Made by a program: the position numbers and the translations under genes. From Mustelus asterias (Eukaryota), in NCBI RefSeq assembly GCF_964213995.1, contig NC_135822.1, positions 65,224,001 to 65,288,000 of the forward strand: 64,000 nt of DNA, given 5' to 3'. A model generated the notes under the pieces. It saw nothing but the letters and a program-made list of their open reading frames with translations, was not told the DNA's origin and made no database searches. Below, one piece after another: positions 6,170-63,512 of this stretch (positions are counted from its first letter, which is position 1; each line of letters starts with the position of its first letter).

Positions 6170-7290
6170 ATTACTTGTCTTTCTGTCTCAGTTCCTTCCT
6201 TTCAACCTCTATTCCTGTCACTTTGACTAGCCGTGTTACTGTGTCTGTCCCTGTCACTCTAGCTGCATTCATGTCTCCATCAGCAATACTGTCTCTGTCC
6301 CTTTCACTCTCTGCGTCCCTGTCACCCTTATCTGTGTCACTATTTCTCTTTCTCTTTTTCCTGTCGCTCTGTGTTACTTTCTCTGTCTCACTCCATGACT
6401 CCACCTCTATCTCTTGTCACTGTCTCTCTCTGTCTCTGTCACTCTATCTGTGTCACTGTCTGTCTCTGACCCTGTCACTTGTCTGTATAACTCTCTTTCT
6501 CTTCGTGTCACACATTCTCTCTCTCCCTGTCACTCTATCCGTGTCACTGCCTGTCTCTGATCCTGTCACTTATCTGTATAGCTCTCTCTCTGTTCCTGCC
6601 ACTCTCTCTCGTCACTCTACCTGTGTCACTGTGTCTCTATCCCTCTCAGTCCATCTGTGTCATTGTCTCTGCCTCTGTCTTTTGTTATTTCCTTCTGACT
6701 CTGTCACTCTGTGTCTATCTGTGTTATTCCCTATCTCTATCTCTGTTCCGGTCTGTGTTATACTCTCTCCCTGTCCTTCATTCTATCGGTGTCACTGTCT
6801 CTCTCTGTCACAGTCTGTGTTATGGTCTGACTCTCTCTCTCTCCCTCTGTGTGTGTTCCTGCTACTCTCTATCTCTCACACTCTTTGTCACTTTATCTGT
6901 GTCATTGTCCCTGGCTTCAGTTGTTTCCTCTGTCTTGTCCGTATCTATATGTATTACTTTTTCTCTTTCTGTCCGTCACTGTCTATCTGTTTCTCTTTCA
7001 CTGTCTGTCTCCCTCTCTGTGTGTGTGGCACTGTCTCTCTCCGTCATTGTCACTCTCCTTGTGTCACTGTCTTTAGTTGTTTTTATATTCGGATCTATCA
7101 TTGTCAATATCTTCCTTTCTGTTCCTACCCCGCCCAACGTATTATCACTGACCCTCTTTTCTGGCCACCGTCCCTTATTTTGTCTTTGTGACTGCCCCGT
7201 CTCTCTTTCTCTCTGCCTCTCACTCTCTTTCTGTTCCCGTCTCTGTCCTCTTTCGTTTCTGTCTCATTCAGTGACACTCACTCTCATGGT
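6170..7290. repeat. ~1.1-kb pyrimidine-rich degenerate microsatellite (TC/TG, recurring CTGTCACT-like units)
   Basis: Low-complexity tctctgtcactc-type repeats; source of spurious S/L/C-rich ORFs. Confidence 0.9.
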
Positions 7291-13230: not shown

Positions 13231-13426
13231 ACCAAAAGAGAAAATGCTGGAAAATCTCAGCAGGTCTGGCAGCATCTGTAAGGAGAGAAAAGCTTTGACA
13301 AAGGGTCACCTGGACTCGAAACGTCAGCTCTTTTCTCTCCTTACAGATGCTGCCAGACCTGCTAAGATTTTCCACCATTTTCCCCTTTGGTTTCAGATTC
13401 CAGCATCCACAGTAATTTGCTTTTAT
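13231..13426 (+). mobile_element. Penelope-like non-autonomous insertion (family C), fold-back with central hammerhead-like motif
   Basis: Inverted arms 13231-13291 / 13331-13391 plus ~35-nt tail; centre agct-TTGACAA-agggtcacctggactc-GAAACGTC-agct; imperfect TSD atctga(ta)tcaggta at 13219 and 13425. Confidence 0.75.
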
Positions 13427-14632
13427 CTGATATCAGGTATGAATTGCACCAGGACACATAGTTACACCACAGAAAATTTGTTCATATAAGTTTATTTTCT
13501 GACTCTTTTTTGAGGCTTACATTGTTTCAGCACTTCACAATGGCACTATATCCCAAAGTGCCTCACAGCCAATTTACGCACAGGTAGATCCCACAAACAG
13601 TAATAATGGTTGTTACTATGTGGCTAGAGACCAGTAACGTTTTGTTTCAAGTAGATGAAATTTACTTACTAAGAGAATAAAGCCACAAGATTCCATGGTT
13701 TCAAATGAACAGCAGAAGCTTTATGATACAAGAGTCAACAAAGCAAAAAGTCACTATTCTACCTTATACTCCAACATCCAGAATTTACATGATGTAAACA
13801 TGAATCAACAGGCAATCTGGTCAAACCCAAAGCACAAACTACACACCAGAGATGGCAATCACGATCAAGACAGTTCCTACAAAGTTCTCAGCAACCAAAC
13901 TAGATGTCAGTGATCACTGTGAGTCACAAAAAAATATTTAAACCCTATCTTCCTCACAAGGAATTTCAGCTAATCTCTTTCAAAGAAATAGCCACTGATT
14001 TCTTAACAGCAGCTCCAACTCAGCCTGGAAGCACTCTTACTTATTCTACCTGCAATGAACTGTCAAGCAATTGTATTCCAGCTCAGATTGCCCCAATGAC
14101 TGCTTGCTGCCCAGCCGTACAGTCACTTTGTCTGAAACTGTGTCCCATGGTATTTGCCAGGCTGCACTGTGGAGTCTATACTCAGGCACAATTCCAGCTC
14201 CTCAGGTGCGCTGCTGCCAGTGACTGCTCTGGGGTTCTTTGATCCCCAACTGCCAGCTTCACTGAACACCTATTGCCCTGGACTATTCAAGTGCTCCAGC
14301 TGCACAATGCTAACCCTATTCCTCTGCTCCTGATGAACTGTCACAGGGGCTCATTTTGCACCTAAACCCCCAGTCACCTGAGCAAGTTTTACATAAAGTC
14401 ATGCATTTGTTTTGCATCCTTCTGAGAGAGCACACAGGACTCAGTTTAACATCCTATCCAAAAATGAAACAGCAGTTCCTGCAGTGCAGACCACGTTTCA
14501 TGGTCAGGTTTTCATACTATCTCCCATTCAGGTGCATTGCTGCTTCAAGACATATGGCTACAATTTAAAGATACCAGTTTGCTCACAGTGTCCAACCAAG
14601 TGCCACAGACACCAGTGAAAGTGCTGTCAACT

Positions 14633-15312: not shown

Positions 15313-15888
15313 TAATATAAACAGAAAATGCTGAAAAAGCTCAGCAGGTCTGGCAGCATATGTGGAGAGAGAAACAGAGTTAACATTTCAAGTCTGCATG
15401 ACTCTTCTTCAGAGCCAAAGAGAGGGAGGAATGTGATGGATTTGATATTGTTTTAGAGGGAGTGGAGCAAGTGGAGCAAAATAGGTCAGTGATAGGTGTG
15501 AGACATTGCTGGGAGACATTGCACAAAGGTGTCTCCCAGCAATCCAAGACAAAGGAAGTGTTAATGGCAGTGTTAAAGACTATATGTAGATGGTGCTAAT
15601 AGTGGCAGAAAGGTAAGATAGCAGAACGTGTTAATAGGAAAACAAAGATCAATGCTCAGTGAAAGCAAAACGTAAGAACAAGTGGCAGATGGCCCTGTGG
15701 GGTGGGGTGGGGGTGAGTGGTGGGGCAGCGGTTAAATTGGGACAAAAAGAAGCTGGAGGAGAAAGTTTACAGTCTAAAGTTGTTGAACTCAATGATGACT
15801 CCAAAAGGTTGTAATGTGCTGAATCAAAAGATGTGTTCCTCATCCTCGTTTTTTCAGATTTCCAGCATCCACAGTATTTTGCTTTTAT
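15313..15888 (-). mobile_element. Older Penelope-like insertion (family C-related): inverted 3' segment plus direct tail
   Basis: aaaacagaaaatgctgaaaaagctcagcaggtctggcagcat... matches the 13231 arm; minus-strand CTGAAGA-agagtcatgcagactt-GAAATGTT motif; plus-strand tail cagatttccagcatccacagtattttgcttttat at ~15855-15888. Confidence 0.65.
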
Positions 15889-18518: not shown

Positions 18519-20327
18519 GTGGCAAGAGTGAAAGTTGGACCCTTGGAGGACGAGACGGGGGATTTAATAGTGGGAAATGAGGAAATGGCTGAAACTTTAA
18601 ATAAGTTTTTTGTGTCGGTCTTCACGGTGGAAGACACAAATAGTTTACCGAATATTAACGATAGAGGGTTGGTAGGAGGAGAGGTACTCAATACAATTAA
18701 TGTTACCAAGGAGGCAGTGCTTGGTAGACTAATGGGACTGAAGGTGGACAAGTCCCCGGGCCCAGATGGAATGCATCCCAGGGTACTGAAAGAAATGTCA
18801 GAGGTAATAGCGGAAGCGTTAGTGGTTATTTATCAAAATTCGTTGGATTCTGGGGTAATGCCGGCAGATTGGAAAATGGCTAATGTTTAAAAAAGGAAAT
18901 AAGACAAAAGGCGGGTAACTACAGGCCGGTTAGCTTAACGTCTGTAGTTGGGAAAATGCTGGAATCCATCATTCAAGAAGAAATAGCAGGCCATCTGGAT
19001 AAGAATGGTTCGATTAATCAGCAGCATGGATTCATGAGGGGAAAGTCGTGCTTGACGAACTTGTTGGAGTTTTATGAAGATGTGACTAGTGCGGTTGACG
19101 GAGGGGAACCGGTGGATGCGGTGTTTTTGGATTTCCAAAAGACGTTTGATAAGGTGCCTCACAAAAGGTTGCTGAAGAAGATTGGGTCACACGGAGTTGG
19201 GGGTAGGGTGTTAGCGTGGATTGGGGATTGGCTATCCGACAGGAAGCAGAGAGTCGGAATAAATGGGTGCTTTTCTGGTTGGCAGATGGTAACTAGTGGC
19301 GTGCCACAGGGATCGGAACTGGGGCCTCAACTATTTACCATTTATATAGACGATCTGGAGGAGGGGACTGAGTGTAGGGTAACTAAGTTTGCAGACAACA
19401 CAAAGATAAGTGGAAAAGTGAATCGTGTGGAGGGCGTAGAAGGTTTACAGAGAGATTTGGACAGGCTGAGTGAGTGGGCGAGGATCTGGCAGATGGAGTA
19501 TAACGTTGACAAATGCGAGGTTATTCACTTTGGAGGAAATAATAGCAAATTGGATTATTATCTAAATGGAAAAAATTACAACATGCTACTGTGCAAAGGG
19601 ACCTGGGGGTCCTTGTGCATGAGACGCAAAAACCCAGTCTGCAGGTGCAACAGGTGACAAAGAAGACAAATGGGATGTTGGCCTATATCGCAAGGGGGAT
19701 AGAATATAAAAGCAGAGATGTCTTGCTGCATCTGTACAGGGCATTGGTGAGGCTGCAGCTGGAATACTGTGTGCAGTATTGGTCCCCTTATTTGCGGAAG
19801 GATGTATTGGCCTTGGAGGGAGTGCAGAGAATGTTCACCAGGTTGATACGAGAGATGAGGGGTGTTGATTATGAGGAGTGACTGAGCAGATTGGGTTTGT
19901 GCTCGTTGGAATTTAGAAGGCTGAGGGAGGATCTTATAGAGACCTATAAGATAATGAAGGGGCTGGATAGGGTAGAGGTGGAGAGATTCTTTCCACTTAG
20001 AAAGGAACCTAGAACTAGAGGGCACAGCCTCAAAATAAAGGGGGGTCGGTTTAGGACAGAGTTGAGGAGGAACTTCTTCTCTCAGAGGGTGGTGAATCTC
20101 TGGAATTTTCTGCCCACTGAAGTGGTGGAGGCTACCTCGTTGAATATGTTTAAATCACGGATAGATGGATTCCTGATCGGTAAGGGAATTAGGGGTTATA
20201 GGGATCAGGCGGGTAAGTGGAACTGATCCACTTCAGATCAGCCATGATCTTATTGAATGGTGGGGCAGGCTCGAGGGGCTAGATGGCCTACTCCTGCTCC
20301 TATTTCTTATGTTCTTATGTTCTTATG
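18519..20327 (+). mobile_element. CR1 LINE, 5'-truncated, disrupted ORF2 (RT)
   Basis: KSPGPDG, YRPVSLTS, QHGF, DFQKTFD, SGVPQGS, FADN motifs with frameshifts and stops; (ttcttatg)n tail. Confidence 0.95.
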
Positions 20328-21537: not shown

Positions 21538-22906
21538 TAGAAACATAGAAACATAGAAAAACTACAGCACAAACAGGCCCTTTGGCCCCACAAGTTGTGC
21601 CGAACATATCCCTACCTTCTAGGCCTACCTATAACCCTCCAAACTATTAAGTCCCATGCACTCATCCAGGAGTCTCTTAAAAGTCCCTATTGAGTTTGCC
21701 TCCACCACCACTGACGGCAGCCGATTCCACTCGCCCACCACCCTCTGTGTGAAAAACTTCCCCCTAACATTTCCCCTGTACCTACCCCCCAGCACCTTAA
21801 ACCTGTGTCTTCTCGTAGCAGCCATTTCCACCCTGGGAAAAAACCTCTGAGAGTCCACCCGATCTATGCCTCTCAACATCTTATATACCTCTATTAGGTC
21901 TCCTCTCATCCTACGTCTCTCCAAGGAGAAAAGACCGAGCTCCCTCAGCCTATCCTCATAAGGCATGCCACTCAATCCAGGCAACATCCTTGTAAATCTC
22001 CTCTGCACCCTTTCAATCTTTTCCACATCCTTCCTGTAATGAGGTGACCAGAACTGAGCACAGTACTCCAAGTGGGGTCTGACGAGGGTCTTATATAGCT
22101 GCATCATTATCTCCGGACTCCTAAACTCAATCCCTTGATTGATAAAGGCCAGCACACCATATGCCTTCTTAACCACCTCCTCCACCTGCGGGGCCAATTT
22201 TGGAGTCCTATGGACCCGGACCCCAAGGTCCTTCTGATCCTCTGCAGTACTCCTTCATCCCATTTGACCTGCCAAAATGGACCACTACGCATTTATCTGG
22301 GTTGAAGTCCATCTGCCACTTGTCCGCCCAGTCTTGCATCCTATCTATGTCCCTCTGTAACTTCTGACATCCCTCCAGACTATCCACAACCCCACCAACC
22401 TTCGTGTCATTGGCAAACTTACCAACCCATCCCTCCACTTCCTCATCCAGGTCATTTATGAAAATGACAAATAGCAAGGGTCCCAGAACAGATCCCTGGG
22501 GCACACCACTGGTGACTGACCTCCATTTAGAAAAAGACCCATCTATACACACTCTCTGCCTCCTCCTTTGGGCAAGCCAGTTCTGGATCCACCGGGCAGC
22601 AGCACCTTGGATCCCATGCCCTCTCGCTTTTTCTCGAAGCCTTGCATGTGGGACCTTATCGAACGCCTTGCTAAAATCCATATAAACCACATCTACCGTT
22701 TTCCCTTCGTCAATGTGTTTAGTCACATTTTCGAAGAACTCCACCAGGCTCGTAAGGCACAATCTGCCTTTGACAAAGCCGTGCTGAGTATTCTTGAGCA
22801 TACTAAACCTCTCTAAATGCTCATAAATCCTGTCCCTCAGGATCTTCTCCATCAGCTTACCAACCACTGAGGTTAGACTCACCGGTCGTTAATTTCCTGG
22901 GCTATC
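21538..22906 (-). mobile_element. CR1 LINE, 5'-truncated
   Basis: ORFs 22208-22882 and 21625-22197 carry RT and C-terminal CR1 motifs (RPHLEYC, RGDLIE); (ctatgttt)n tail at the left end; small internal deletion near 22245. Confidence 0.95.
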
Positions 22907-24992: not shown

Positions 24993-26390
24993 AAATTCAT
25001 TCATGGGATGTGGGCATCGCTGACTGGGCCAGCATGAATTGGGGGTAGGGTGTTAGCGTGGATTGGGGATTGGCTATCCGACAGGAAGCAGAGAGTCGGA
25101 ATAAATGGGTGCTTTTCTGGTTGGCAGATGGTAACTAGTGGCGTGCCGCACGGATCGGTACTGGGGCCTCAACTATTTACCATTTATATAGATGATCGGG
25201 AGGAGGGGACTGAGTGTAGGGTAACAAAGTTTGCAGACGACACAAAGATAAGTGGAAAAGTGAATCGTGTGGAGGGCGTAGAAGGTCTGCAGAGAGATTT
25301 GGACAGGCTGAGTGAGTGGGCGAGGATCTGGCAGATGGAGTATAACGTTGACAAATGCGAGGTTATTCACTTTGGAAGAAATAATAGCAAATTGGATTAT
25401 TATCTAAATGGAAAGAAATTACGACATGCTACTGTGCAAAGGGACCTGGGGGTCCTTGTGCATGAGACGCAAAAACCCAGTCTGCAGGTGCAACAGGTGA
25501 TCAAGAAGGCAAATGGGATGTTGACCTATATCGCAAGGGGGATAGAATATAAAAGCAGAGATGTCTTGCTGCATCTATACAGGGCATTGGTGAGGCCGCA
25601 GCTGGAATACTGTGTGCAGTATTGGTCCCCTTATTTGCGGAAGGATATATTGGCCTTGGAGGGAGTGCAGAGAAGGTTCACCATGTTGATACGAGAGATG
25701 AGGGGTGTTGATTATGAGGAGAGACTGAGCAGATTGGGTTTGTATTCGTTGGAATTTAGAAGGCTGAGGGGGGATCTTATAGAGACCTATAAGATAATGA
25801 AGGGGCTGGATAGGGTAGAGGTGGAGAGATTCTTTCCACTTAGAAAGGAACCTAGAACTAGAGGGCACAGCCTCAAAATAAAGGGGGGTCGGTTTAGGAC
25901 AGAATTGAGGAGGAACTTCTTCTCTCAGAGGGTGGTGAATCTCTGGAATTCTCTGCCCACTGAAGTGGTGGAGGCTACCTCGTTGAATATGTTTAAATCA
26001 CGGATAGATGGCTTCCTGATTGGTAAGGGAATTAGGGGTGATAGGGATCAGGCGGGTAAGTGGAACTGATCCACTTCAGATCGGCCATGATCTTATTGAA
26101 TGGCGGGGCAGGCTCGAGGGGCTAGATGGCCTACTCCCGCTCCTATTTCTTATGTTCTTATGTTCTTATGAATTGCCCACCCCTAAAGAGCCCTTGAGAA
26201 GGTGGTGATGGGACATCTTCTTGAACCATGGTGCTGTTCGGAAGTGAGTTCCAGAGTTTTGACCCAGCGTCAGTGAAGGAATGGTCAGGATGATGTGTGA
26301 CTTGGAGGGGAACTTGTGAATAGTGGTGTTCCCATGTGTCTTCTGCCCTTGTCCTTCAAGGTGGTCGTGGCTGTGGGTTTGGAAGGTGAC
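24993..26390 (-). mobile_element. Older LINE 3' end split by the 25042 CR1
   Basis: gggatgtgggcatcgctg...ccagcat resumes after the CR1 as tgcccacc...cccttgagaaggtggtg; plus-strand relative at 51260-51430. Confidence 0.6.
25042..26167 (+). mobile_element. Young CR1 LINE, 5'-truncated, open 339-aa ORF2 C-terminus
   Basis: FADD motif; near-identical to 19199-20327; 8-bp TSD ATGAATTG at 25034-25041 and 26168-26175. Confidence 0.95.
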
Positions 26391-26768
26391 CACTGTCTCC
26401 TATTTTATATATTTACATTTTTAATGATGTTTTATAATCCCTGAAGTTAAAGAGATGGACGAAAGGGGGTTAAAAGTTGAGTGATTGTGGAAAAAAGACA
26501 TATTGGAAAATGTTACTGTTGCTTAGCGATAGCAGTCAAATGACAGAGGCATAGACAAAAGGTGGAAAAAAACGTTCAGTGTGTGTCAGAGAGAGAGGAC
26601 AGAAATTTTAAGCCCACTGATAAGCAAGGATACAGGCTTTTGGGGGACCACCTTTGACTGAATAATCAGTTTGAGATCTCAGTGAAGTTATCAGTTTAGC
26701 AGACGTGTGACGACAAGACTGAATTGAGGGAACTTTTGTTTGCTCTGCAGTTGAAGGAACAGTACTTT

Positions 26769-26888
26769 TGGGGTGTGGTTTATGGGGTGTGGTTTATGGG
26801 GTGTGGTTTATGGGGTGTGGTTTATGGGGTGTGGTTTATGGGGTGTTGTTTATGGGGTGTGGTTTATGGGGTGTGGTTTATGGGGTGT
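26769..26888. repeat. 14-bp minisatellite (TATGGGGTGTGGTT)~8.5
   Basis: Direct tandem copies, one variant unit (ggggtgttgttt). Confidence 0.95.
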
Positions 26889-27477
26889 GCCAGTGAGAGA
26901 TACAACTTGGGTGAGAAGCATCAAGTAAATGCTGAAGAATCCTCCAGAAGAAAACTGTTTCAAACTGTGCCAAACGAGAAGCCTTTGTGTCAAGCTCGTG
27001 GTAACTTTGGGAGGCAAGGGATGAGATTGCAGAGCCTTTGGCTTTGATCTTTGGGTCCTCGCTGTCCACGGGGATGGTGCCAGAGGACTGGAGAATGGCG
27101 AATGTTGTTCCTCTGTTTAAGAAAGGGAATAGAAATGACCCTGGTAATTATAGACCGGTTAGTCTTACTTCGGTGGTTGGTAAGTTGATGGAAAAGGTCC
27201 TTAGGGATGGGATTTACAACCATTTATAAAGATGCGGATTAATCCGGGATAGTCAGCACGGATTCGTGAAGGGCAAGTCGTGCCTCACAAATTTGATCGA
27301 ATTTTTTGAGGAGGTAACCAAGTGTGTTGATGAAGGTAGGGCAGTTGATGTCATATACATGGATTTTAGTAAGGCGTTTGATAAGGTCCCCCATGGTCGG
27401 CTTATGATGAAAGTGAAGAGGTGTGGGATAGAGGGAAAGTTGGCCGATTGGATAGGTAACTGGCTATCTGATCGAAG

Positions 27478-27735
27478 TCATGATGTGGAGATGCCGGCGT
27501 TGGACTGGGGTAAACACAGTAAGAAGTCTCACAACACCAGGTTAAAGTCCAACAGGTTTATTTGGTAGCAAATACCATAAGCTTTCGGAGCACTGTTCCT
27601 TCGTCAGATGGAGTGGAAATGTGCTCTCAAACATTCCACTCCATCTGTCGAAGGAGCAGTGCTCCGAAAGCTTATGGTATTTGCTACCAAGTAAACCTGT
27701 TGGACTTTAACCTGGTGTTGTGAGACTTCTTACTG
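27478..27735 (-). mobile_element. Penelope-like palindromic mini-element (family A)
   Basis: ~39-nt tail 27478-27516, inverted arms 27517-~27622 / ~27631-27735; perfect 13-bp TSD TATCTGATCGAAG at 27465-27477 and 27736-27748. Confidence 0.9.
27575..27611 (-). ncRNA. Minimal hammerhead ribozyme motif (family A)
   Basis: ccat-CTGACGA-aggaacagtgctcc-GAAAGCTT-atgg; the mirror copy at 27641-27677 has a CTGTCGA core mutation. Confidence 0.65.
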
Positions 27736-29549
27736 TATCTGATCGAAGACAGAGGGTGGTGGTGGATGGAAAATTTTCGGATTGGAGGCAGGTTGCTAGC
27801 GGAGTGCCACAGGGATCAGTGCTTGGTCCTCTGCTCTTTGTGATTTTTATTAATGACTTAGAGGAGGGGACTGAAGGGTGGATCAGTAAATTTGCTGATG
27901 ACACCAAGATTGGTGGAGTAGTGGATGAGGTGGAGGGCTGTTGTAGGCTGCAAAGAGACATAGATAGGATGCAAAGCTGGGCTGAAAAATGGCAAATGGA
28001 GTTTAACCCTGATAAATGTGAGGTGATTCATTTTGGTAGGACTAATTTAAATGTGGATTACAGGGTCAAAGGTAGGGTTCTGAAGACTGTGGAGGAACAG
28101 AGAGATCTTGGGGTCCATATCCACAGATCTCTAAAGGTTGCCACTCAAGTGGACAGAGCTGTGAAGAAGGCCTATAGTGTGTAGGCTTTTATTAACAGGG
28201 GGTTGGAGTTTACGAGCCATGGGGTTATGCTGCAACTGTACAGAACCTTGGTGAGACCACATTTGGAATATTGTGTGCAGTTCTGGTCACCTCACTATAA
28301 GAAGGATGTGGAAGCGCTGGAAAGAGTGCAGAGGAGATTTACCAGGATGCTGCCTGGTTTGGAGGGTAGGTCTTATGAGGAAAGGTTGAGGGTGCTCGGG
28401 CTGTTCTCTCTGGAGCGGAGGAGGCTGAGGGGAGACTTAATAGAGGTTTATAAACTGATGAAGGGGATAGATAGAGTGAACGTTCAAAGACTATTTCCTC
28501 AGGTGGATGGAGCTATTACAAGGGGGCATAACTATAGGGTTCATGGGGGTGGGAGATATAGGAAGGATATCAGAGGTAGGTTCTTTACGCAGAGAGTGGT
28601 TGGGGTGTGGAATGGAACATTTAAGCGGTTATTGGATAGGCACATGGAGCACACCATGATGATAGGGAGTGGGATAGCTTGATCTTGGTTTCAGATAAAG
28701 CTCAGCACAACATCGTGGGCCGAAGGGCCTGTTCTGTGCTGTACTGTTCTGTGTTCTATGTTCTAACTCTTCAGAAGCTCATGTGTCTGTAAGGTGTTGC
28801 TGGGGTAAAGAAATAGTGTGAATCTGAGTCATCTTCTTGTGTTTGTATTGAGATCTTTCCAACACATTTATGTCTGGTGTAATATGGCTAATTTTTCTTG
28901 TTTAATTAATACTTTATTCTTTGTGTGATGAGTTCACGAGTAGACTCCTGTGAATTTGTTCAGTAACTTTCCTCCATGGCTTATCTAAAAAAAGTTAGGA
29001 TCTCTCACACCAGGTTTCACTCTGGAATCTGACGTCCAGTTTGAACATCAGCTGGGATTGTCACAGTCAGACAGCGAGAACTAAATACTTCAGAAAGCCA
29101 AAAGGAGTATAGATTGAGAAGGTGTGAAATCAAAAAAAGGAAATTAGAAAAGCAAATTGGGGCAAGAATCAATATTGGCAAATAAAATCAAGGAGAACCC
29201 AAAGATATTTTATTAATACATGAAGAGTAAGAGGATAACTAAGGTAGGACCTATAAAAGACCAAATAGGTGGAGGATGTGGGTATGGTGCTTAATGAATA
29301 CTTTGCATCTGTCTTCACAAAAGAAGGGGACAATGCAGACATTGTATATTCAGAGGAATGTGAAGTATTGGATGTGATAAACATAGGGAGAGAAGAAGTA
29401 TGAAGGGCATTAACATTCTCGAAAGTAGATAAATCATGAGAGCCGGATGAAATGTACCACAACTTGAGTACTGTGTGGTGTTAAAATAAGGTAAGAAGTT
29501 TAACAACACCAGGTTAAAGTCCAACAGGTTTATTTGGTAGCAAAAGCCA

Positions 29550-29586
29550 CACAAGCTTTCGGAGCTCCAAGCCCCTTCTTCAGGTG
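29550..29586 (-). ncRNA. Minimal hammerhead ribozyme motif (mirror copy)
   Basis: Reverse complement of 30892-30928. Confidence 0.7.
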
Positions 29587-29795
29587 AGTGGGAATTCTGT
29601 TCACAAACAGAGCATATAAAGACACAAACTCAATTTACATGAATAATGGTTGGAATGCGAATACTTACAACTAATCAAGTCTTTAAGAAACAAAACAATG
29701 TGAGTGGAGAGAGCATCAAGACAGGCTAAAAAGATGTGTATTGTTTGCAGACAAGACAGCCAGTGAAACTCTGCAGGTCTAGGCAACTGTGGGGG

Positions 29796-30234
29796 TTACA
29801 AATAGTGTGACATGAACCCAATATCCCGGTTGAGGCCGTCCTCGTGTGTGCGGAACTTGGCTATCAGTTTCTGCTCAGCGACTCTGCGCTGTCGTGTGTC
29901 GCGAAGGCCGCCTTGGAGAACGCTTACCCGAATATCAGAGGCCGAATGCCCGTGACCGCTGAAGTGCTCCCCAACAGGAAGAGAACAGTCTTGCCTGGTG
30001 ATTGTCGAGCGGTGTTCATTCATCCGTTGTCGCAGCGTCTGCATAGTTTCCCCAATGTACCATGCCTCGGGACATCCTTTCTTGCAGCGTATCAGGTAGA
30101 CAACGTTGGCCGAATTGCAAGAGTATGTACCGTGTACCTGGTGGATGGTGTTCTCACGTGAGATGATGGCATCTGTGTCGATGATCCGGCACGTCTTGCA
30201 GAGGTTGCTGTGGCAGGGTTGTGTGGTGTCATGG
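29796..30234 (-). pseudogene. GIY-YIG endonuclease C-terminal fragment of a Penelope-like ORF (left arm, frame open)
   Basis: PCHSNLCKTC Cys-rich linker, NVVYLIRC, WYIGET, RMNEH, EHF, AEQKLI, GLN motifs; no RT domain and no native start. Confidence 0.9.
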
Positions 30235-30244
30235 TCACTGTTCT

Positions 30245-30682
30245 CCATGACACCACACAACCCTGCCACAGCAACCTCTGCAAGACGTGCCGGATCATCG
30301 ACATAGATGCCATCATCTCACGTGAGAACACCATCCACCAGGTACACGGTACACACTCTTGCAATTCGGCCAACGTTGTCTACCTGATACGCTGCAAGAA
30401 AGATGTCCCGAGGCATGGTACATTGGGGAAACTATGCAGACGCTGCGACAACGGATGAATGAACACCGCTCGACAATCACCAGGCAAGACTGTTCTCTTC
30501 CTGTTGGGGAGCACTTCAGCGGTCACGGGCATTCGGCCTCTGATATTCGGGTAAGCGTTCTCCAAGGCGGCCTTCGCGACACACGACAGCACAGAGTCGC
30601 TGAGCAGAAACTGATAGCCAAGTTCCGCACACACGAGGACGGCCTCAACCGGGATATTGGGTTCATGTCACACTATTTGTAA
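30245..30682 (+). pseudogene. GIY-YIG fragment (right arm), frameshifted
   Basis: Mirror of the left arm with a 1-nt deletion near 30403 (aagaaagatgtcc vs aagaaaggatgtcc). Confidence 0.9.
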
Positions 30683-30891
30683 CCCCCACAGTTGCCTAGA
30701 CCTGCAGAGTTTCACTGGCTGTCTTGTCTGGAGACAATATACATCTTTTTAGTCTGTCTTGATGCTCTCTCCACTCACATTGTTTTGTTTCTTAAAGACT
30801 TGATTAGTTGTAAGTATTCGCATTCCAACCATTATTCATGTAAATTGAGTTTGTGTCTTTATATGCTCTGTTTGTGAACAGAATTCCCATT

Positions 30892-30928
30892 CACCTGAAG
30901 AAGGGGCTTGGAGCTCCGAAAGCTTGTG
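30892..30928 (+). ncRNA. Minimal hammerhead ribozyme motif
   Basis: cac-CTGAAGA-a-GGGGCT tgg AGCTCC-GAAAGCTT-gtg: helix I cac/gtg, core, helix II, palindromic AGCT helix III. Confidence 0.7.
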
Positions 30929-31778
30929 TGGCTTTTGCTACCAAATAAACCTGTTGGACTTTAACCTGGTGTTGTTAAACGTCTTACTGTGTTTACCCCA
31001 GTCAACGCCGGCATCTCCACATCGTGTTAAAATAAGTCAGGAAGGAAATTGTGGAGGGTCTGACCATTATTTTCCAATCCTCATTGGATACAAATGAGGT
31101 GCCGGAGGTTTGGAGAACTGCTAATGTTGCACCTTTGCTTAATAAGGGAGTGAGAGATAGACCAAATAATTACAAGCCAGTCTGTCTGACCTTGGTAGTG
31201 GACGAATTATTGGAATCAATTCTGAGGGACAGGATAAACCGTCACTCAGAAAGGCATGGATTAATCAAGGACAGTCTGCATGGACTTGTTAAGATAAGGT
31301 TGTGTCTGACTAATTTGGTTGAATTTTTTGAGGAAGTAACAAGAGGATTGATGAGGTTAGTGCAGTTGATGCAGTTTACGTCAATTTTAGCAAGGCTTTT
31401 GACCAATGTCCCACGTGGCAGACTGGTTAAAGAAATAAAATCCATGGGATCCTGGGAAATGCAGCAAGCTGGATACAAAATTGGCTCGGTGGAGGAACCA
31501 AAGGATAATTGGTGATGAATGTTTTTGTCACTGGGAGGCTGTTTCCAATGGGTTCCGTAGGACTCAGCACTGGGTCTCCTGCTTTTCATGGGAAATATTA
31601 ATGATTTAGAGATAAATGTCAGGGGAATGATTAATACATTTGCAGATGACACAAAATTGGCTGCATGGTTGACAGCGAGGAGGATTGTTGTAGATTACAG
31701 GAAGATAGCAATGGGCTGGTCGGGTGGGCAGAAAAGTGGCAAATGGAATTCAACCCAGAACAGTGTGAGGTGATGCAT

Positions 31779-32665: not shown

Positions 32666-33370
32666 GTAGAGTCGTAGAGATTTATAGCATGGAAACAGGC
32701 CCTCCGGCCCAACTTGTCCATGCTGCCCTTTTTTTTCAAACCCCTAAACTAATCCCAATTGCCCGCATTTGGCCCATATCCCTCTATACCCATCTTACCC
32801 ATGTAACTGTCTTTTTAAAAGATAAAATTGTACCCGCCTCTACTACTACTTCTGGCAGCTTGTTCCAGACATTCACCACCCTGTGTGTGAAAAAATTGCA
32901 GTAAGAAGTTTTAACAACACCAGGTCCTGAACACTCATCGGAAGAAGGAGCTTAAGGCTCCGAAAGCTTGTGGCTTTTGCTACCAAATAAACCTGTTGGA
33001 CTTTAACCTGGTGTTGTTAAACTTCTTACTGTGTTTACCCCAGTCCAACGCCGGCATCTCCACATAATGAAAAAATTGCCCCTTTGGACACTTTTATATC
33101 TCTCCCCTCTCATCTTAAACCTATGCCCTCTAGTTTTAGACTCCCCTCCCTTTGGGAAAAGATATCGACTATCTAGCTGATCTGTGCCCCTCATTATTTT
33201 GTAGACCTCTATAAGATCACCCCTCAGCCTTCGACGCTCCAGAGAAAAAAAGTCCCAGTCTATCCAGCCTCTCCTTATAACTCAAACCATCAAGTCTCGG
33301 TAGCATCCACGTAAATCTTTTCTGCACTCTTTCTAGTTTAATAATATCCTTACTAGTTTAATAATATCCT
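32666..33370 (-). mobile_element. CR1 3' fragment in TMEM230 intron 1, interrupted
   Basis: RGHRFK, RGNFF..RVV motifs on the minus strand. Confidence 0.85.
32900..33067 (+). mobile_element. Penelope-like mini-element (family B) with short inverted 5' arm
   Basis: 26-nt inverted arm, then direct 3' end with tail; 12-bp TSD TGAAAAAATTGC at 32888-32899 and 33068-33079. Confidence 0.85.
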
Positions 33371-35949: not shown

Positions 35950-37283
35950 TGAGATGGAGTACTTATACTAAGTGTTTTCTTGGGCTGTCATGTACTAAGG
36001 AATAGGTTATGTTTGAGCCTGATCAGGTGTTTTCTTTTGTAGTTAAGCCTCTGCGTTATGTTCCACTGAATTGCATTTTAAGCACCCTCATTATGAAAGG
36101 GAGGTCTGTCATTGACATTACAAAACTTTGCAGGAATTTTCCAGTTTTGTTTCTAGGATTTCAGTAGTGAGATGATTGTTGGCTGAAATTTTTGTACTGT
36201 GTCCACTTGAAGTATGAAAGACCCTTCCAAACCTGAGATGTGTCGGGACAGTGAAGTGCTGGTGGATGCACACAAAATATTTTGCACAGCATAGAAGTGT
36301 GTCGACTCAGTGAACTTTTCTATTTTGTCTTCATCCTGAATTTCCAGTTTTCTGGGCTTGAAAGGCAGATAATGGGATAATGTGTTATATTTACACAAAG
36401 CTTCAAAATCAGTTGGGGAAAATGAATTGAAACGGGTCCTGCTTCATTGGTAGCCCATTCACTCGGGTCTCAGGCTGATTTACATGCAAATGCTGTGATG
36501 GATTTTATTTTGTGATTTGAAAAGTGTAAGTATGATAAACTTCACATATAAGCCTTGGATGCCTTAAAATCAAGTGACGTTGCAATATAGGCCTGTAAAT
36601 TTCATTTGAGGTTTTCCGTTCAAGCAGTCTTCATGTTGCAAAACAAAATCCCTTCAATGTCAGTCTGTAATTGGATTGGGTCTTCTGTTGACCTGCCCTC
36701 CCCCATTCCTGGTTTGACTTGTTGGTTTCACACTTACTGCAAACTCATATTTGCTACTAACAATCTATCGGATAGAGGAATCAAGTCCGTATGTACCAGG
36801 ATGTTGAAATGCCTAGGGTCATCCTAGCTGCCTGTCTGCACTTAGACTTAAGATAGCAGATAGAACATGAACACTGGTGGGAACCGGCTAGCTTTTACGC
36901 CCACAGTCTTTCTGCCAGAGACTGGTCCCAAAGCTTTCTTGGGTTTTGCATAATGTGGGCACTGGTGTCAACCCTTTTATCCTGCAGATCTTCCGCTAAC
37001 TGCCATTTGTGGCAGCGCTTTCGCATGAAAGGATACAAAAGTTGAACATGTTTGTGTTCAGTTTGGAATTGAGCTTGGCTACCATTTTCCTTCTGTCGAA
37101 GAAGAATGTCAGCAGGTGATATTATTCAAGGCAGAGATAGACAGGCTTCTGATAGATAAGGGAGTCAAGGATTATGGGGAGAAGAAGATAAAGTGGAGTT
37201 GACACCACAGCCAGATCAGTCATGATCTTATTGAATGGTGGAGCTCAAAGGACTGAATGTGGCCTCCTGTGTGTAAGTTCCTA

Positions 37284-37533
37284 GTAAGAAGTCTCACAAC
37301 ACCAGGTTAAAGTCCAACAGGTTTATTTGGTAGCAAATACCATAAGCTTTCGGAGCGCTGCTCATTCGTCAGATGGAGTGGTTATCTGTTCTCAAACAGT
37401 GCAAACAGACACAGAAATCAAATTACAGAATACTGATTAGAATGCAAATCTCTACAGCCAGCCAGGTCATAAATGTACAGACAATGTGGGTGGAGGGAGC
37501 ATTCAACACAGGTTAAAGAGTTGTGTATTGTCC
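37284..37533 (-). mobile_element. Penelope-like single-arm insertion (family A), no tail
   Basis: 12-bp TSD TGTAAGTTCCTA at 37272-37283 and 37534-37545; hammerhead-like motif at 37340-37376 (minus). Confidence 0.85.
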
Positions 37534-45690: not shown

Positions 45691-46081
45691 CAAAGTTGGA
45701 AAAATGTGATGGTGGAAGTGTTGCAGGAAGTAACGTAATAACTTTACATTGGAGAGCTAACTTTGAACAAAATGGTTTCAAGTACCTCGGGTCCAAACTG
45801 GACGATGCTTCCATAGATAGACAACATAAGAGGAAGCAAGGGATAGGGCATGAGGAAAGAAGAAATGGGCTTCATTCAGAAATATTTTCCCTCAAGGGTA
45901 CTTGGATACTAGGAACAGCAGGTCTGAAATTTTCATGTGCCTGAGAGGCACATATTTTCTGATGTGAAGACCAGTCTGAGGGAAATGTGAAAGGGAAGTC
46001 AGCGATCCCCTCGTCTGTCACTGTGTGAAAACAGCCAACGTGCTTCAGAAGAAGGGGCTTTATATCAAATAAGCTCTGTAT

Positions 46082-46393
46082 TCGCTTCTCGGCCTTTTGG
46101 CTAAGATCAAGTGTAGTTATGCGCATGCTGCACTTGGTTGAGGTCATTAGGTTACATTGAAGTTTCATATGAAGCAATTTTTAAAAGCGGTCTCTCGGCC
46201 AAGATGCAAATGAGCTCAAGTCTTGGAGGAGGAATTGCTTTCCCTCCTCCAATCAGCTTGGCTCATGTAGATCAGGCCCAGGACAGGGTAAATGGTCGCT
46301 CGCCCTGTCTTGCCAGACTGGATAGGAAATGTCTCAACTTGTTGAGACTCTGAATTGGACTTGATTTGGTTGAATTGGAAAAGTATTAAAAAA
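46082..46393 (+). mobile_element. U2 snRNA-headed SINE-like element, copy 1
   Basis: 46082-46117 matches U2 nt 2-37 (TCGCTTCTCGGCCTTTTGGCTAAGATCAAGTGTAGT); non-U2 body; A-rich tail; 13-bp TSD AAGCTCTGTATTC at 46071-46083 and 46394-46406. Confidence 0.85.
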
Positions 46394-46579: not shown

Positions 46580-48637
46580 TAGAACCATAGAACCATAGAA
46601 AATTACAGCTCAGAAACAGGCCTTTTGGCCCTTCTTGTCTGTGCCGAACCATTTTATGCCTAGTCCCACTGACCTGCACTTGGACCATATCCCTCCACAC
46701 CCCTCTCATCCATGAACCCGTCCAAGTTTTTCTTAAATGTTAAAAGTGACCCCGCATTTACCACTTTATCCGGCAGCTCATTCCACACTCCCACCACTCT
46801 CTGCGTGAAGAAGCCCCCCCTAATATTCCCTTTAAACTTTTCTCCTTTCTCCCTTAACCCATGCCCTCTGGGTTTTTTTTCCCCTAGCCTCAGCGGAAAA
46901 AGCCTGCTTGCATTCACTCTATCTAAACCCATCAAAATCTTATACACCTCTATCAAATCTCCCCTCAATCTTCTACGCTCCAGGGAATAAAGTCCCAACC
47001 TATTCAATCTCTCTCTGTAACTCAGCTTCTCAAGTCCCGGCAACATCCTTGTGAACCTTCTCTGCACTCTTTCAATCTTATTTACATCCTTCCTGTAACT
47101 AGGTGACCAAAACTGTACACAATACTCCAAATTCGGCCTCACCAATGCCTTATATAACCTTACCATAACACTCCAACTTTTATACTCGATACTCCGATTT
47201 ATAAAGGCCAATGTACCAAAGGCACTCTTTACGACCCTATCCACCTGTGACGTCACTTTTAGGGAACTCTGTACCTGTATTCCCAGATCCCTCTGTTCAA
47301 CTGCACTCTTCAGAGTCCTAACATTTACCCTGTACGTTCTTCTTTGGTTTGTCCTTCCTATGTGCAATATCTCACACTTGTCTGCGTTAAATTCCATTTG
47401 CCATTTTTCAGCCCATTTTTCTAGTTGGTCCAAGCTTTGAAAACCTTCCTCACTGTCCACTACACCTCCAATCTTTGTATCATCAGCAAACTTGCTGATC
47501 CAATTTACCACATTATCATCCAGATCATTGATATAGATGACAAACAACAATGGACCCAACACCGATCCCTGCGGCACACCACTAGTCACAGGCCTCCACT
47601 CAGAGAAGCAATCCTCCACAACCACTCTCTGGCTTCTTCCATTGAGCCAGTGTCTTATCCAATTTACTACCTCCCCATGTATACCCAGCGACTGAACCTT
47701 CCTAACTAACCTCCCATGAGGGACCTTGTCAAAGGCCTTGCTGAAATCCAGGTAGACAACATCCACCGCCTTCCCTTCATCCACTTTCCTGGTAACCTCC
47801 TCGAAAAACTCTAATCGATTGGTCAAACATGACCTACCACGCACAAAGCCATGTTGACTCTCCCTAATAAGTCCCTGTCTATCCAAATATTTGTAGATCC
47901 TATCCCTTATCACACCTTCCAATAACTTGCCCACCACCGACGTCAAACTTACTGGCCTATAATTTCCTGGATTTCTTTTGGAACCTTTTTTAAACAACGG
48001 AACAACATGAGCCACCCTCCAATCATCCGGCACCTCCCCCATGAATACTGACATTTTAAATATGTCTGCCAGGGCCCCTGCAAGTTCAACACTAGCTTCC
48101 CTCAAGGTCCGTGGGAATACCCTGTCCGGTCCTGGGGATTTATCCACTCTGATTTGCCTCAAGACAGCGAGCACCTCCTCCCCTTTAATCTGTAAAGGTT
48201 CCATGGCCTCCCTACCAGTTTGCCCTATTTCCGTAGACTCCATGCCCGTTTCCTCAGTAAATACAGATGCAAAAAAACCATTTAGTATCTCCCCCATCTC
48301 TTTTGGTTCCATACACAGTGTACCACTCTGGTCTTCAAGAGGACCAATTTTATCCCTCACTATCCTTTTGCTCCTAACATACCTATAGAAGCTCTTTGGA
48401 TTTTCCTTCACTCTGTCTGCCAAAGCAACCTCATGTCTTCTTTTAGCCCTCCTGATTTCCCTCTTAAGTAGCTTCTTGCACTTTTTATACTCCTCGAGCA
48501 TCTGATGTGTTCCTTGCTGCCTGTACACTTCATACAACTCTCTCTTCCTCTTAATCAGTGTTACAATCTCCCTCGAGAACCAAGGTTCCTTATTCCTATT
48601 TACTTTGCCTTTAATCCTGACAGGAACATACAAACTC
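46580..48637 (-). mobile_element. Young CR1 LINE, 5'-truncated, 657-codon open ORF2 segment
   Basis: Continuous RT ORF 46660-48633 (KSPGPD, YRPVSLTS, QHGF, DFSKAFD, GVPQGS, FADD); (ctatggtt)n tail. Confidence 0.97.
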
Positions 48638-51023
48638 TTTTATATTATGCTGTTTCAACTTCATTTCGCTTCTGTGTTTACTTGTCCATAATTGTGGATG
48701 CTATTTTTGCCTGTTAAAATGGGATAGCAATATATTCCTCACTATCCAAGCTATTCTACGCGTTCTGTGGTATCATTACAGCACAGATGGTCATATGGTC
48801 CACCGAATCTATACTTTTATTTCATCCTCACCAGCTATCCTGTCTGCTTGCTCCATGTTTGTCAAGCAAAACTATTGACGGGAATGTACTTCAACTTCGT
48901 TTGTCTCACATTCTAATTGTCATCTACGTAATCTTTTCTCCAACGCCTCTTCAGTTATTTTTGGGATTAGTCCAGAACCCTGGTGACATTGAAATAAGAC
49001 GCAGGAGAAAATACTGAACAACAGTCTCAATGTGGAAAACACAAAAAAACAGAAGAACTGGGAGACGAGAAAAGACCAAGGGCCATCCCGCCAGATACAA
49101 AGCTGACGGAGACGTTGACTAATCGTAGCAATCAATCTCGATCAATTAGCCGACAACAGACCCAAAACATGGGCTGAGTTAAACTCCTCATGGTGGCGAG
49201 CTTGGGGAAACGCAGGTCTACAGTCACCACTTACATGTCATGTCTCAAATTACTGATATACTGTATCCCAAAATGTTACTTTCAAGAATGAATTCGCACT
49301 GACTGCGTCCACTGTCTCCCTCCTGTTCTGGATAATGTGATGTGGAGAAGCAGCTTGTTGTGGTCTGTGTTCACTGGTTCCTTTAGAATGTTATGGAGCA
49401 ATCGTATCACCTCTCAACTTTCTAATTCCTGTGAGAACTTGTCCCAGTTACACAATTGCTCATGATTCAATCCCTCTGTGCCCTCAATCGCGAATCAACG
49501 TAAAGGAGAGACAGCGAAGAAGGAAGTGGCCGTAAGGAATTAAACTGAAAGAATGGAGGGGTTGATTAAAGTTCAAGGCAACCGAAGGACAAGGTGCGGC
49601 TCCTCCGGCGGTTCGGCTGGTAATGGCACCTGCCAAATATGGGATCAGCCTATTATTTGTACTATTGTAATTCACAGCCTCCAGCTTTACTGCAATCTGT
49701 GATGGGATGCGGGGGGCGGGGGGGATATTTTTCAGTGTTGATTTATCTGACAAACCATGACTTCATAATTCAGCAATGCATTCCAGGGTATAGACAGACA
49801 GACAACCCTCCACGGAACTCCTGCAGACCACAAAACTATGAAGTAGTCTAAACCTAATCGGCATAATGCATGGACATGGTCTCACTTGAGGGCGTTTGGA
49901 TCATGCGGAGAAACTGAGAATGTTTCACGTTTAACGAGCCCCTTGAGGTCTATTTATCTGCTGTTGTAACATTGTGATATTTCCCTTTTTCTCTCCCTTT
50001 GACAATCATTCTCCCCTCTTGTTCTAAATGTTATGCCTCTTGAAGGGGTGCTCTTCTGCGAATAACCACAGTTCTCCAGTTCCTCACCTAGTGGCTCGAT
50101 TATAGTGATGTTGCCATAATAGCTGACAGCAGTGGGCGCCACAGGCGAGCCAGTCCTCAGTTATTCTTCCGGTACTGACACTGACCAGAAGGACTTTCTG
50201 GACACCGAAGGGAGGTAGATTTGGGACCAGGAAGAGATCAGCCATGATCTGATTGAATGGCGGAGCAGGCTGGAAGGGCTGAATCTGCCTACTTCTGCTC
50301 CTAATTCCTATGTTCCTACTTCTGTGGTGACCGCTCAACGACAAATTCTCTGTCCACAATGCTCCCTCCCTGAATATAACAGATCTCACACCAGCACCTC
50401 AATTGCATTAGAAGCTATTGGGAATTAAATGATGCGAGTTATTAGAATAATGTAATTGGACTAAAGTACGAACAGTTTTCTCTGGACGGAGGTCTATTCC
50501 AAAAGCTGAAGCGAATAAAAGTGATCATTTTTTTAATCATGGCATCAAGTACAAATTAAAACACAATGTCAAGAGTGTCTGGTTAACCATGTCAACTGAA
50601 CCATAAAATCTGCCAGAGAATTGCTGCCATTCTTGACTTCCCTTACAATCAAAGAAGTTTTCAGCTCAGGAGAAGGCCATTTGGCCCAACTCTTTAATGA
50701 AAGCAATCCAAAACTAAAATGCCCTCCCCCACAGCCTTGTATCTTTCTCTCAGTTAAATACTGTCTTTATTCACCTTGCCTAGAAACAATTAAATGGTCT
50801 CTGCCTCGACTCCCTGACAAATTGTTCCATGATTGAACCACCCTCCTGAGCTTTCTTCTCACTCACAATACCAAGTTTTAAATTGATGGACCCTCCTTGC
50901 TTCTGTCTCCAACTGGAGGAAACTGGACTTTCCTGACACAAGATCAAAACGTTCAATGTTTGGGAAAAAAAGCATTTTCTCTCCCCGTGGGGGAAAAGTT
51001 TCTCCTCATAATGCAAGTGTCTT

Positions 51024-54669: not shown

Positions 54670-54978
54670 TTTAAAATAAGTTATATCCAATCAAATCCAA
54701 TCAAAGTCCAATTCAAGGTCTCAACCAGCGAGATGTTACAGATCCAAGCTGACAAGACAGGCTGCTCTCTTCCTGTCTTGGGCTTGATCTGCATGATCCA
54801 AACTGATAGGAGCAGGCATTGCACCCCTCCAGTGCTTGATTTCATTTGCATCTTAGCCAAAAGGCCTAGATGCAGTTTTTAAAAAATGCTTCAAATGAAA
54901 CCCCAGTGAAACCTTATTGACTTCTATCAAGTGCAGGACAGCAAAACTACACTTGATCTTAGCCAAAAGGCCGAGAAG
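54670..54978 (-). mobile_element. U2 snRNA-headed SINE-like element, copy 2
   Basis: 54946-54978 is the reverse complement of U2 nt 5-37; body collinear with copy 1; imperfect TSD ggggaagtagaact (54656-54669) / ggggaggtagaact (54983-54996). Confidence 0.85.
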
Positions 54979-54997
54979 TAAGGGGGAGGTAGAACTA

Positions 54998-55114
54998 AGA
55001 GAGAAAATGGTGGAAAATCTCAGCAGGTCTGGCAACATCTGTAAGGAGAGAAAAGAGCTGACGTTTCGAGTCCAGATGACCCTTTGTCAAAGCTAAAAGC
55101 TTTGTCAAAGCAAA
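54998..55114 (-). mobile_element. Penelope-like single-arm insertion (family C)
   Basis: Reverse complement of 13291-13385 including the hammerhead-like motif; imperfect 13-bp TSD at 54985-54997 and 55115-55127. Confidence 0.75.
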
Positions 55115-55897: not shown

Positions 55898-56558
55898 CAG
55901 AAAACAAAGAATAAAGTACACGACAGCACAGGAACAGGCCCTTCGGCCCACCAAGTTTGTGCTGACAGATGCCTCTCTGATCTCATTTTTTTGTCCATAC
56001 ATCCCTCTATATCCCTGCCTATATATATATGCCTCTATTCCCTGCCTATTCATGTATCTACAGTAAGAAGTTTAACAACACCAGGTTAAAGTCCAACAGG
56101 TTTATTTGGTAGCAAAAGCCACACAAGCTTTCGAGGCTCTGAGCCCCTTCTTCAGGTGAGTGGGAATTCATGTATCTATCCAGATGCCTCTTGAAACGTT
56201 GTAATAGAATTTGCTTCCACCACCTCCTCTGGCAGCGCATTCCAGGCATTTACCACTCTGTGTGTGAAAATCTTGCCCCTTGCATCTCTTTTAAACTTTC
56301 CCTCTTTCACTCTCAACCTATGCCGCCTAGTAATTGACCCTTCGACCCTGGGAAATAGAGTCTGACGATCCACTCTATACAAGCCTGTCATAATCTTGTA
56401 AACCTCTATCAGGTTCCCCCCTCATCCTCCGAGGTTCCAATGAAAACAATCCAAGTTTGTTCAACCTGTCTTCATTGTTCATATCCTCCAACTCCAGGCA
56501 ACATCCAAGTCATCTCTTCTACATCCTTTCCAATGCATCAAGATCCTTCCGGTCGAGT

Positions 56559-62730: not shown

Positions 62731-62894
62731 ATGATGTGGAGATGCCGGCGTTGGACTGGGGTGAACACAGTAAGAAGTCTCACAACACTAGGTTAAAGTC
62801 CAACAGGTTTATTTGGTAGCAAATACCAGTTACATTGGTATTTGCTACCAAATAAACCTGTTGGACTTTAACCTGGTGTTGTGAGACTTCTTAC
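62731..62894 (-). mobile_element. Penelope-like palindromic mini-element (family A), 164 bp
   Basis: Tail plus ~59-bp inverted arms that stop just short of the hammerhead motif; 13-bp TSD TTTATTATCCTTA at 62718-62730 and 62895-62907. Confidence 0.9.
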
Positions 62895-63512
62895 TTTATT
62901 ATCCTTAGCCAGGGTAGCAGTTAGGGTGCCGCAGTTGGCCTCAACTTCTCTGGTGTAGGGAGGTATCATATCTCTGATTGATCATGCCCCTAATTACTAC
63001 CAAGCACCTTGTGTGTGTGGGTTTGGTTCTGTTTTAGTTGCTGTGGGGAGGAGGTTCTTCCATGGACGTTGATTTGGGGGAACAAAAAGAACGCCTTCTT
63101 GCATTGGGATTCCAAAATCCACCCTATGATGTAAACTGGGCAGGTTCCATTGTACAAGAAGCCAAGGAAAAATAAAAACACCTGTATTTTAAATTGTGTG
63201 CGATATTAAGGATTAAAGTTGGGCAGGGCTCACAGCTGTTTCTACTCGGTCTTGCAGTAAGAATATAGTATCTCTCCCTGATGAGTGAATTAGAAAAAAT
63301 ATTAGCTTTTGGTCAAACTCATGATGATGCTTCACTGGGGGAAAATGTCCCAAACCAAAGGTAAATAAATAGCAATTTTGTGCTGAAGGTTTTTTCTCCG
63401 CCTTTTCCTCCCTCCCTTTTAAAATGCTTGTTCCTCCCTGGGGTGTGTTTCACAGGTGCGAGTGTTTTTCTGAGTGATAATTCTTCTCCTTAATTGTTCG
63501 GTGTCTTGTGAA

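Follow-up and report, generated by a model that had tools for sequence, protein, structure and literature searches.

In this study, we relate the hammerhead ribozymes of a 64,000-nucleotide (nt) stretch of the Mustelus asterias genome (NC_135822.1, positions 65,224,001 to 65,288,000; hereafter the window) to the population of Penelope-like elements (PLEs) that carries them. The motifs belong to a published class, the minimal type I hammerheads found within the pseudo-long terminal repeats (pLTRs) of endonuclease-bearing PLEs. We consider it quite probable that they cleave only as dimers or together with element protein, and that most genomic copies were made from uncut RNA. The ribozymes themselves are ordinary for PLEs, and the pairing of the two has been published; the role of the hammerhead in the PLE cycle is described as still open (PMC8557442). 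With more than 120,000 ends of young elements in this genome, that role becomes approachable by counting.

The genome measures 3.68 Gb, and the window is part of its contig C22. A 38-nt piece of the tail common to A and B elements matches the genome exactly at 120,214 places, and a 31-nt piece of family C at 9,680. We sampled loci at which the tail matched exactly, drawing on contig C1 (its first 14 Mb for C and its first 2.9 Mb for A/B) and on 764 kb of contiguous C22 around the window. The sample yielded 159 C-type and 248 A/B arms, whose 5′ ends were placed by reference-anchored extension; forty loci chosen for length (L001-L030, L091-L100) are excluded from all 5′-end and junction counts. 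In family C, a TATA box lies 30 nt ahead of the first nucleotide of helix I; 43 of 158 arms start at precisely that nucleotide and 69 within 4 nt of it, as against two at the cut. Among non-inverted copies, 12 of 40 ends fell into this 4-nt window (p = 4e-7) and the cut accounted for none of 57, and when each insertion is counted once (first sample), 53 of 106 family C insertions have an arm starting at helix I. Ends lying 3-9 nt before core nucleotide C3 account for 25 of 59 nearby ends in the TATA-bearing A/B subfamilies, compared with 3 of 39 in the TATA-less ones (Fisher p = 2e-4). Since the accumulation of ends lies at helix I, 30 nt past the TATA box, rather than at the cut, and is lacking in TATA-less subfamilies, most copies likely derive from uncut RNA. 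On this sequence evidence, the helix I peak is likely the transcription start, and the RNA template was likely mostly uncut. Among described relatives, a rotifer PLE pLTR carries TATA and initiator-like motifs (PMC3846280), and the promoter of Drosophila virilis Penelope is internal and TATA-less (PMC2377424).

Several points weigh against this interpretation. The 5′-end windows were fixed after family C had been inspected, the two arms of one palindrome are not independent, and junctions at the family C start can be promoted by the self-complementary tetramer located there. For A/B, slightly more ends than expected fall within 1 nt of the cut (8 versus about 3.3, p = 0.02 uncorrected), and an extra G before the start, as a mark of the cap, gave no clear signal (A 20, C 13, G 9). 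Where a copy reaches beyond the start site, its sequence would be identical whether the template was uncut RNA or a cut and religated circle. Finally, a splice-acceptor-like sequence, with pyrimidine tract and AG, coincides with the family C peak. This last point would suit a pile-up caused by a 3′ splice site, with an intron ending at helix I and copies made from spliced or splice-cut RNA, and in D. virilis Penelope an intron end does map to the 5′ end of helix I (PMC4209133). However, the non-inverted copies have no common upstream exon, and in several of them the target-site duplication, judged by eye, abuts the start; the sole candidate "exon", of 18 nt, is present at three loci related to each other and at one further, unrelated site, and the A/B peak tracks the TATA box, not an AG. 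A spliced first exon for family C was rejected on the unshared upstream sequence and the distribution of the 18-nt candidate, and we regard the splicing explanation as a whole as unlikely.

We give a similarly low probability to cleavage in vivo with cut RNA or religated circles as the main templates, in which case the helix I ends would be artefacts of microhomology joints. RNA circles have been proposed (PMC4209133), and besides the slight A/B excess at the cut, one arm starts at or just past the cut in 4 of 41 C palindromes. Both arms of the window palindrome at 62731-62897 start 1 nt past it, making this the best local candidate for a cut-RNA template. Nevertheless, the four C junctions would be equally explained by complementary DNA (cDNA) that ended at helix I and snapped back through it, with no cut, and the non-inverted copies counted above start at helix I too and never at the cut.

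The preference for uncut RNA is congruent with biochemical work on the Poseidon element PAc of Anolis carolinensis (Frangieh et al. 2024, PMC11167929), in which uncut RNA was the main substrate in vitro and the hammerhead cleaved only with PLE protein present. As here, two reverse transcription (RT) start sites bound a tail of 30-40 nt; both target strands are cut and extended and no RNA ends lie at the cut, in agreement with our genomic pattern. The two systems differ in the start of the open reading frame (ORF), which lies in stem II in PAc and about 130 nt after core nucleotide C3 in B. The anole results were obtained in vitro, whereas our 5′-end census and the tail rule described below are genomic counts; copy starts at the predicted transcription start rather than at the cut support, in vivo, an uncut RNA template.

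The tail rule concerns the head-to-head palindromes, which combine one long and one short tail in 74 of 81 A/B and 42 of 45 C cases. Inverted PLE copies with a one-sided tail are known (PMC8557442), and endonuclease-bearing PLE insertions are described that resemble ours in the head-to-head 5′-truncated copy, the tail at one end, the palindrome at the junction and the target-site duplication (PMC3846280, PMC8557442). Priming at both known RT start sites, with one target strand for each, would explain the rule; so would fold-back of one cDNA that stopped short of its start. PMC3846280 favours self-priming on an antisense template, while our data fit two primings on sense RNA ending at the start site.

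Taken together, these data suggest the following course. In TATA-bearing subfamilies, the pLTR promoter would start the RNA 4-9 nt before core nucleotide C3, at the 5′ strand of helix I, so that the ribozyme would form the first 40 nt or so of the transcript. RT would begin 60-100 nt further downstream, at a pair of tail sites used on opposite target strands; cDNA synthesis would pass through the uncut hammerhead to the RNA 5′ end, and the two cDNA ends would join head to head. Selection on the ribozyme would act only in master elements, where tandem read-through RNA would contain a pair of same-strand motifs spaced by about 3 kb; there, slow cleavage would take off the cap and cut the RNA down to unit length. 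The dispersed copies, whether single or palindromic, would decay neutrally.

As to the motifs themselves, the preliminary description had listed eight in the window, and all eight were verified at their positions with the sequence described (Table 1). A strict descriptor, which demands an unbroken core, at least 3 bp in helix I and 4 bp in helix II, a self-complementary tetramer for helix III and a base other than G as H17, matched five, the B and C copies, and nothing in any of 200 dinucleotide shuffles. Single mutations in the family A copies were likewise found, and each of the three window A copies in fact fails the descriptor by one substitution. An Rfam search of the window gave no hammerhead match at E ≤ 1; its microRNA-type matches, below gathering score, were rejected as hairpin look-alikes.

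The proposed covariation also held up. In an alignment of 12 copies, standard pairs fill 91.6% of cells (shuffled mean 72.5, slid controls 32-43%), and both sides have changed in 9 of the 12 hammerhead pairs. These copies were chosen by coordinate and not one per subfamily, omit a subfamily with U7 and C17 as well as the 37340 copy, and come from few master lineages, so they represent only a handful of independent covariation events. The 3-8 pair is C-G or U-A and the extra A between positions 9 and 10.1 is present in all 12, while the 10.1-11.1 pair is G-C in ten and G-U in two (and broken in the omitted 37340 copy). The inner three helix I pairs form in 33 of 36 cells; the outermost, fourth pair is weak, with 6 of 11 cells unpaired. 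Loop 3 is absent, and the self-complementary 15.1-16.1 tetramer forms in 11 of 12 copies for each of its two pairs, both sides having changed between A/B and C. Among the 186 readable A/B arms (of 248), H17 is U in 108, A in 53, C in 25 and never G, position 7 varies freely, and helix I opens with C-G in 111 arms and with U-A in 60. Lineage-level changes thus preserve the hammerhead fold, a sign of selection on master elements. These preserved features (the 3-8 pair, an H17 other than G, a free position 7) are the catalytic ones. They speak against the proposal, which we regard as unlikely, that the motif has lost cleavage and either persists as a leader with a structural or protein-binding role or is passively carried, even though metazoan minimal hammerheads have low in vitro activity (PMC4209133), Naiad PLEs spread without hammerheads (PMC8557442) and catalytic mutants had no effect on insertion in vitro (PMC11167929).

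Contrary to the earlier view of the family C core as a non-canonical defect, its double change keeps the 3-8 pair: of 159 C-type arms the motif is readable in 114, of which 92 have U3-A8, six C3-G8 (one of them a chance match), six C3-A8 and ten other combinations. The natural sister pair of C3-G8 and U3-A8 motifs offers a ready-made test of core compensation. The six arms with the unpaired C3-A8 combination speak against our main reading. Within family C the core decays at the pace of neighbouring positions, as expected for dead copies. A further adverse point comes from folding, in which the predicted minimum-energy dimers pair through helices I and II with helix III unused. The active dimer is therefore not the predicted ground state; thermodynamic folding is unable to score the dimeric active form.

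Most of this architecture has precedents. The U3-A8 variant (published for Schistosoma PLEs), the extra nucleotide after position 9 and the self-complementary helix III have all been published for PLE hammerheads (PMC4209133). The motifs described there resemble ours further in being type I without loop 3, with self-complementary 15.2-16.2, the extra nucleotide between 9 and 10.1, a G10.1-C11.1 pair and a short helix I, and in occurring mostly as single copies or opposite-strand pairs. Helix II differs, with 5-6 bp here and 7-8 in Schistosoma. The same work reports PLE hammerheads in the fish elements Xena, Poseidon and Neptune; cartilaginous fish are not named in its results and discussion, although its supplementary figures may list chondrichthyan motifs. 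Among titles and abstracts, we found no paper on shark retrotransposon hammerhead ribozymes or on U3A8 hammerheads. Non-LTR retrozymes (bioRxiv 10.64898/2026.07.22.740005), known in one chondrichthyan, share the type I hammerhead and a relationship to PLEs. They are short non-coding head-to-tail arrays, whereas ours are ORF-bearing PLEs and truncated ends; window copies are single or inverted, and a tandem on contig C4, with a 2,991-bp period, is coding.

In line with PMC4209133, the motifs are PLE-borne minimal type I hammerheads with a predicted cut after H17, and the loopless palindrome of helix III can form only between two copies, both as the preliminary description had it. Its further claim, that two same-strand copies are needed, stands in part. 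The C4 tandem, three B units head to tail, 2,991 bp apart (L297-L299, C4:69471800-69478732), supplies the arrangement needed by a dimer: in each unit, an intact hammerhead on the same strand precedes the ORF start codon by about 130 nt. A second RNA copy may not be the sole route, since the anole hammerhead cleaved only with PLE protein (PMC11167929). All three units have a common break in the N-terminal reading frame. Palindromic inserts had been called probably silent. For cleavage this is plausible, as a complete palindromic A insert is predicted, on either strand, to form a single long hairpin in which the motif is locked away; the 13.2-kb C palindrome is predicted to leave its motif open on an extended helix I. 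In other respects silence does not hold, because some palindromes share rare junctions with separate insertions and were likely copied again or converted.

Five such rare junctions recur between C1 insertions that have their own flanks, 1.8 kb to 3.3 Mb apart (L211-L213, L215-L217, L057/L058, L167/L204, L152/L164). One, with an 18-nt insert, is found at 7.68, 7.84 and 10.99 Mb of C1 and at no other element genome-wide. A second has three of its 17 matches within 107 kb; for a third, two of three matches lie 1.8 kb apart, identical over 93 nt and with the long tail on opposite arms. The fourth has only two matches, 1.12 Mb apart, and the best match of the fifth is 3.0 Mb away. These junctions were chosen because they repeat within the C1 sample; as that sample holds about 1% (C) or 0.1% (A/B) of copies, chance would not be expected to yield triples or kilobase spacing. 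Segmental duplication was rejected as the source, since the flanks of L211-L213 and L215-L217 do not align across the insertion sites; those of L215 and L216 share about 45 nt of a common repeat on one side only. Ectopic gene conversion would fit, as would retrotransposition from nascent RNA that is tethered; some palindromes appear to have been re-copied or converted, likely often nearby. This recurrence among neighbours is absent from the relevant passages of PMC3846280 and PMC8557442.

Several results speak against strict locality. Two window junctions tested free of such selection have their best matches on other chromosomes, at 97% on contig C4 and 97% on contig C3, where C3:139073050-139073114 matches across the whole junction of the window palindrome at 29484-31026. 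None of 12 scored C22 palindromes had a sister within the 764 kb, and the pair 1.12 Mb apart differs at subfamily sites beside the junction. We therefore put forward only tentatively, and as less probable than not, a broader proposal: that PLEs reverse-transcribe nascent, uncut, chromatin-tethered RNA by twin priming, palindromes serving as templates and daughters landing preferentially near their source. Such local hopping, if true, would also account for the retention of introns in PLEs and for a hammerhead without genomic footprint. Local re-copying, if upheld, would be unusual for a retrotransposon; local hopping has been described for cut-and-paste DNA transposons (PMC12477816), and a literature search by title and abstract found no paper on local hopping or twin priming in PLEs.

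Regarding the host elements, three families had been distinguished. A and B share pLTR, tail and ORF end and are therefore subfamilies of one lineage. In the window, the ORF is represented by its C-terminal part (Table 1). RT (here the reverse transcriptase domain, PF00078) is found in two longer B copies, L093 and L094, whose reading frames share the same C-terminus. The cysteine linker of the B protein (C-x4-C-x2-C) points to Neptune or Nematis rather than Poseidon, as these clades are defined by a CX2-5CxxC linker before the endonuclease (PMC8557442). Family C has a putative endonuclease end: frames lying upstream in two of its long copies resemble that of B (39% over 64 amino acids, E = 2e-6; 36% over 47 amino acids), but no Pfam family matched them. 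Two A/B palindromes on C1 (L064, L073) are inserted within family C elements, which makes A/B the younger lineage, able to nest in C. Target-site duplications measure 8-13 bp in seven of eight window insertions examined; the copy at 55.0 kb has only 6 nt.

Table 1. Hammerhead motifs and PLE features of the window (a dot marks palindromes)
Feature	Positions	Strand	Remarks
Hammerhead A1	27575-27611	-	Fails strict descriptor: one substitution, helix II mismatch
Hammerhead A1	27641-27677	+	Fails strict descriptor: core position 6 mutated, predicted dead
Hammerhead A1	37340-37376	-	Fails strict descriptor: G10.1 mutated
Hammerhead B	29550-29586	-	Intact, passes strict descriptor
Hammerhead B	30892-30928	+	Intact, passes strict descriptor; predicted cut after 30925
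Hammerhead B	56122-56158	-	Intact, passes strict descriptor
Hammerhead C, U3-A8 core	13291-13329	+	Passes strict descriptor
Hammerhead C, U3-A8 core	55056-55094	-	Passes strict descriptor
C-related sister motif, canonical C3-G8 core	15378-15416	-	New relative to preliminary description
Decayed B-type hammerhead	~32933-32972	+	New relative to preliminary description
Palindromic PLE insertion, subfamily A1, TATA-less	27478-27736	.	Two head-to-head pLTR ends; long tail left, short right; 13-bp target-site duplication
Young palindromic PLE insertion, subfamily B	29484-31026	.	Arms ~98% complementary; short tail left, long right; 12-bp target-site duplication
PLE ORF, C-terminal part: C-x4-C-x2-C linker and GIY-YIG endonuclease	29796-30317	-	Pfam PF01541, E 5.5e-5, 23.8 bits (cut-off 22.6)
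TATA-like box of B pLTR	30860-30865	+	+30 at ~30890, five nt before core C3; predicted transcription start
PLE tail, ~35 nt	30991-31026	+	In full-length tandem units, tail end = ORF start codon
Short B-type pLTR insertion	32899-33068	+	Decayed hammerhead, 27-nt inverted stub; 12-bp target-site duplication
Simple 5′-truncated A1 copy	37283-37532	-	Carries 37340-37376 hammerhead; 11-bp target-site duplication
Simple short B copy	56060-56169	-	Carries intact 56122-56158 hammerhead; 13-bp target-site duplication
A1 palindrome without hammerhead	62731-62897	.	Both arms start ~1 nt 3′ of predicted cut, hence no hammerhead; 7-nt joint; 13-bp target-site duplication
Family C palindrome	13231-13428	.	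Right arm from helix I, left arm from just 3′ of cut; 8-bp target-site duplication
Family C copy	54994-55110	-	Carries 55056-55094 hammerhead, U3-A8 core
C-related sister family copy	15319-15419	-	Canonical C3-G8 core, hammerhead 15378-15416

Further features of the window include copies of a long interspersed nuclear element (LINE)-type RT gene (PF00078) at 18880-20310, 21620-22900, 25020-26150, 46660-48640 and 27000-28760, the last of which contains the A1 palindrome at 27478-27736. The LINE copies at 18.9-20.3 kb and 24.7-26.2 kb are 95-96% alike and 5,843 bp apart. A 14-bp tandem repeat occupies 26752-26891, and a CT-rich low-complexity tract 6200-7250. At 46081-46278 (+) and 54772-54982 (-) lies a repeat headed by the first ~37 nt of U2 small nuclear RNA, with a second partial U2 piece inside; it has seven copies or fragments in the DNA searched and resembles the crocodilian SINEU described in PMC4494074.

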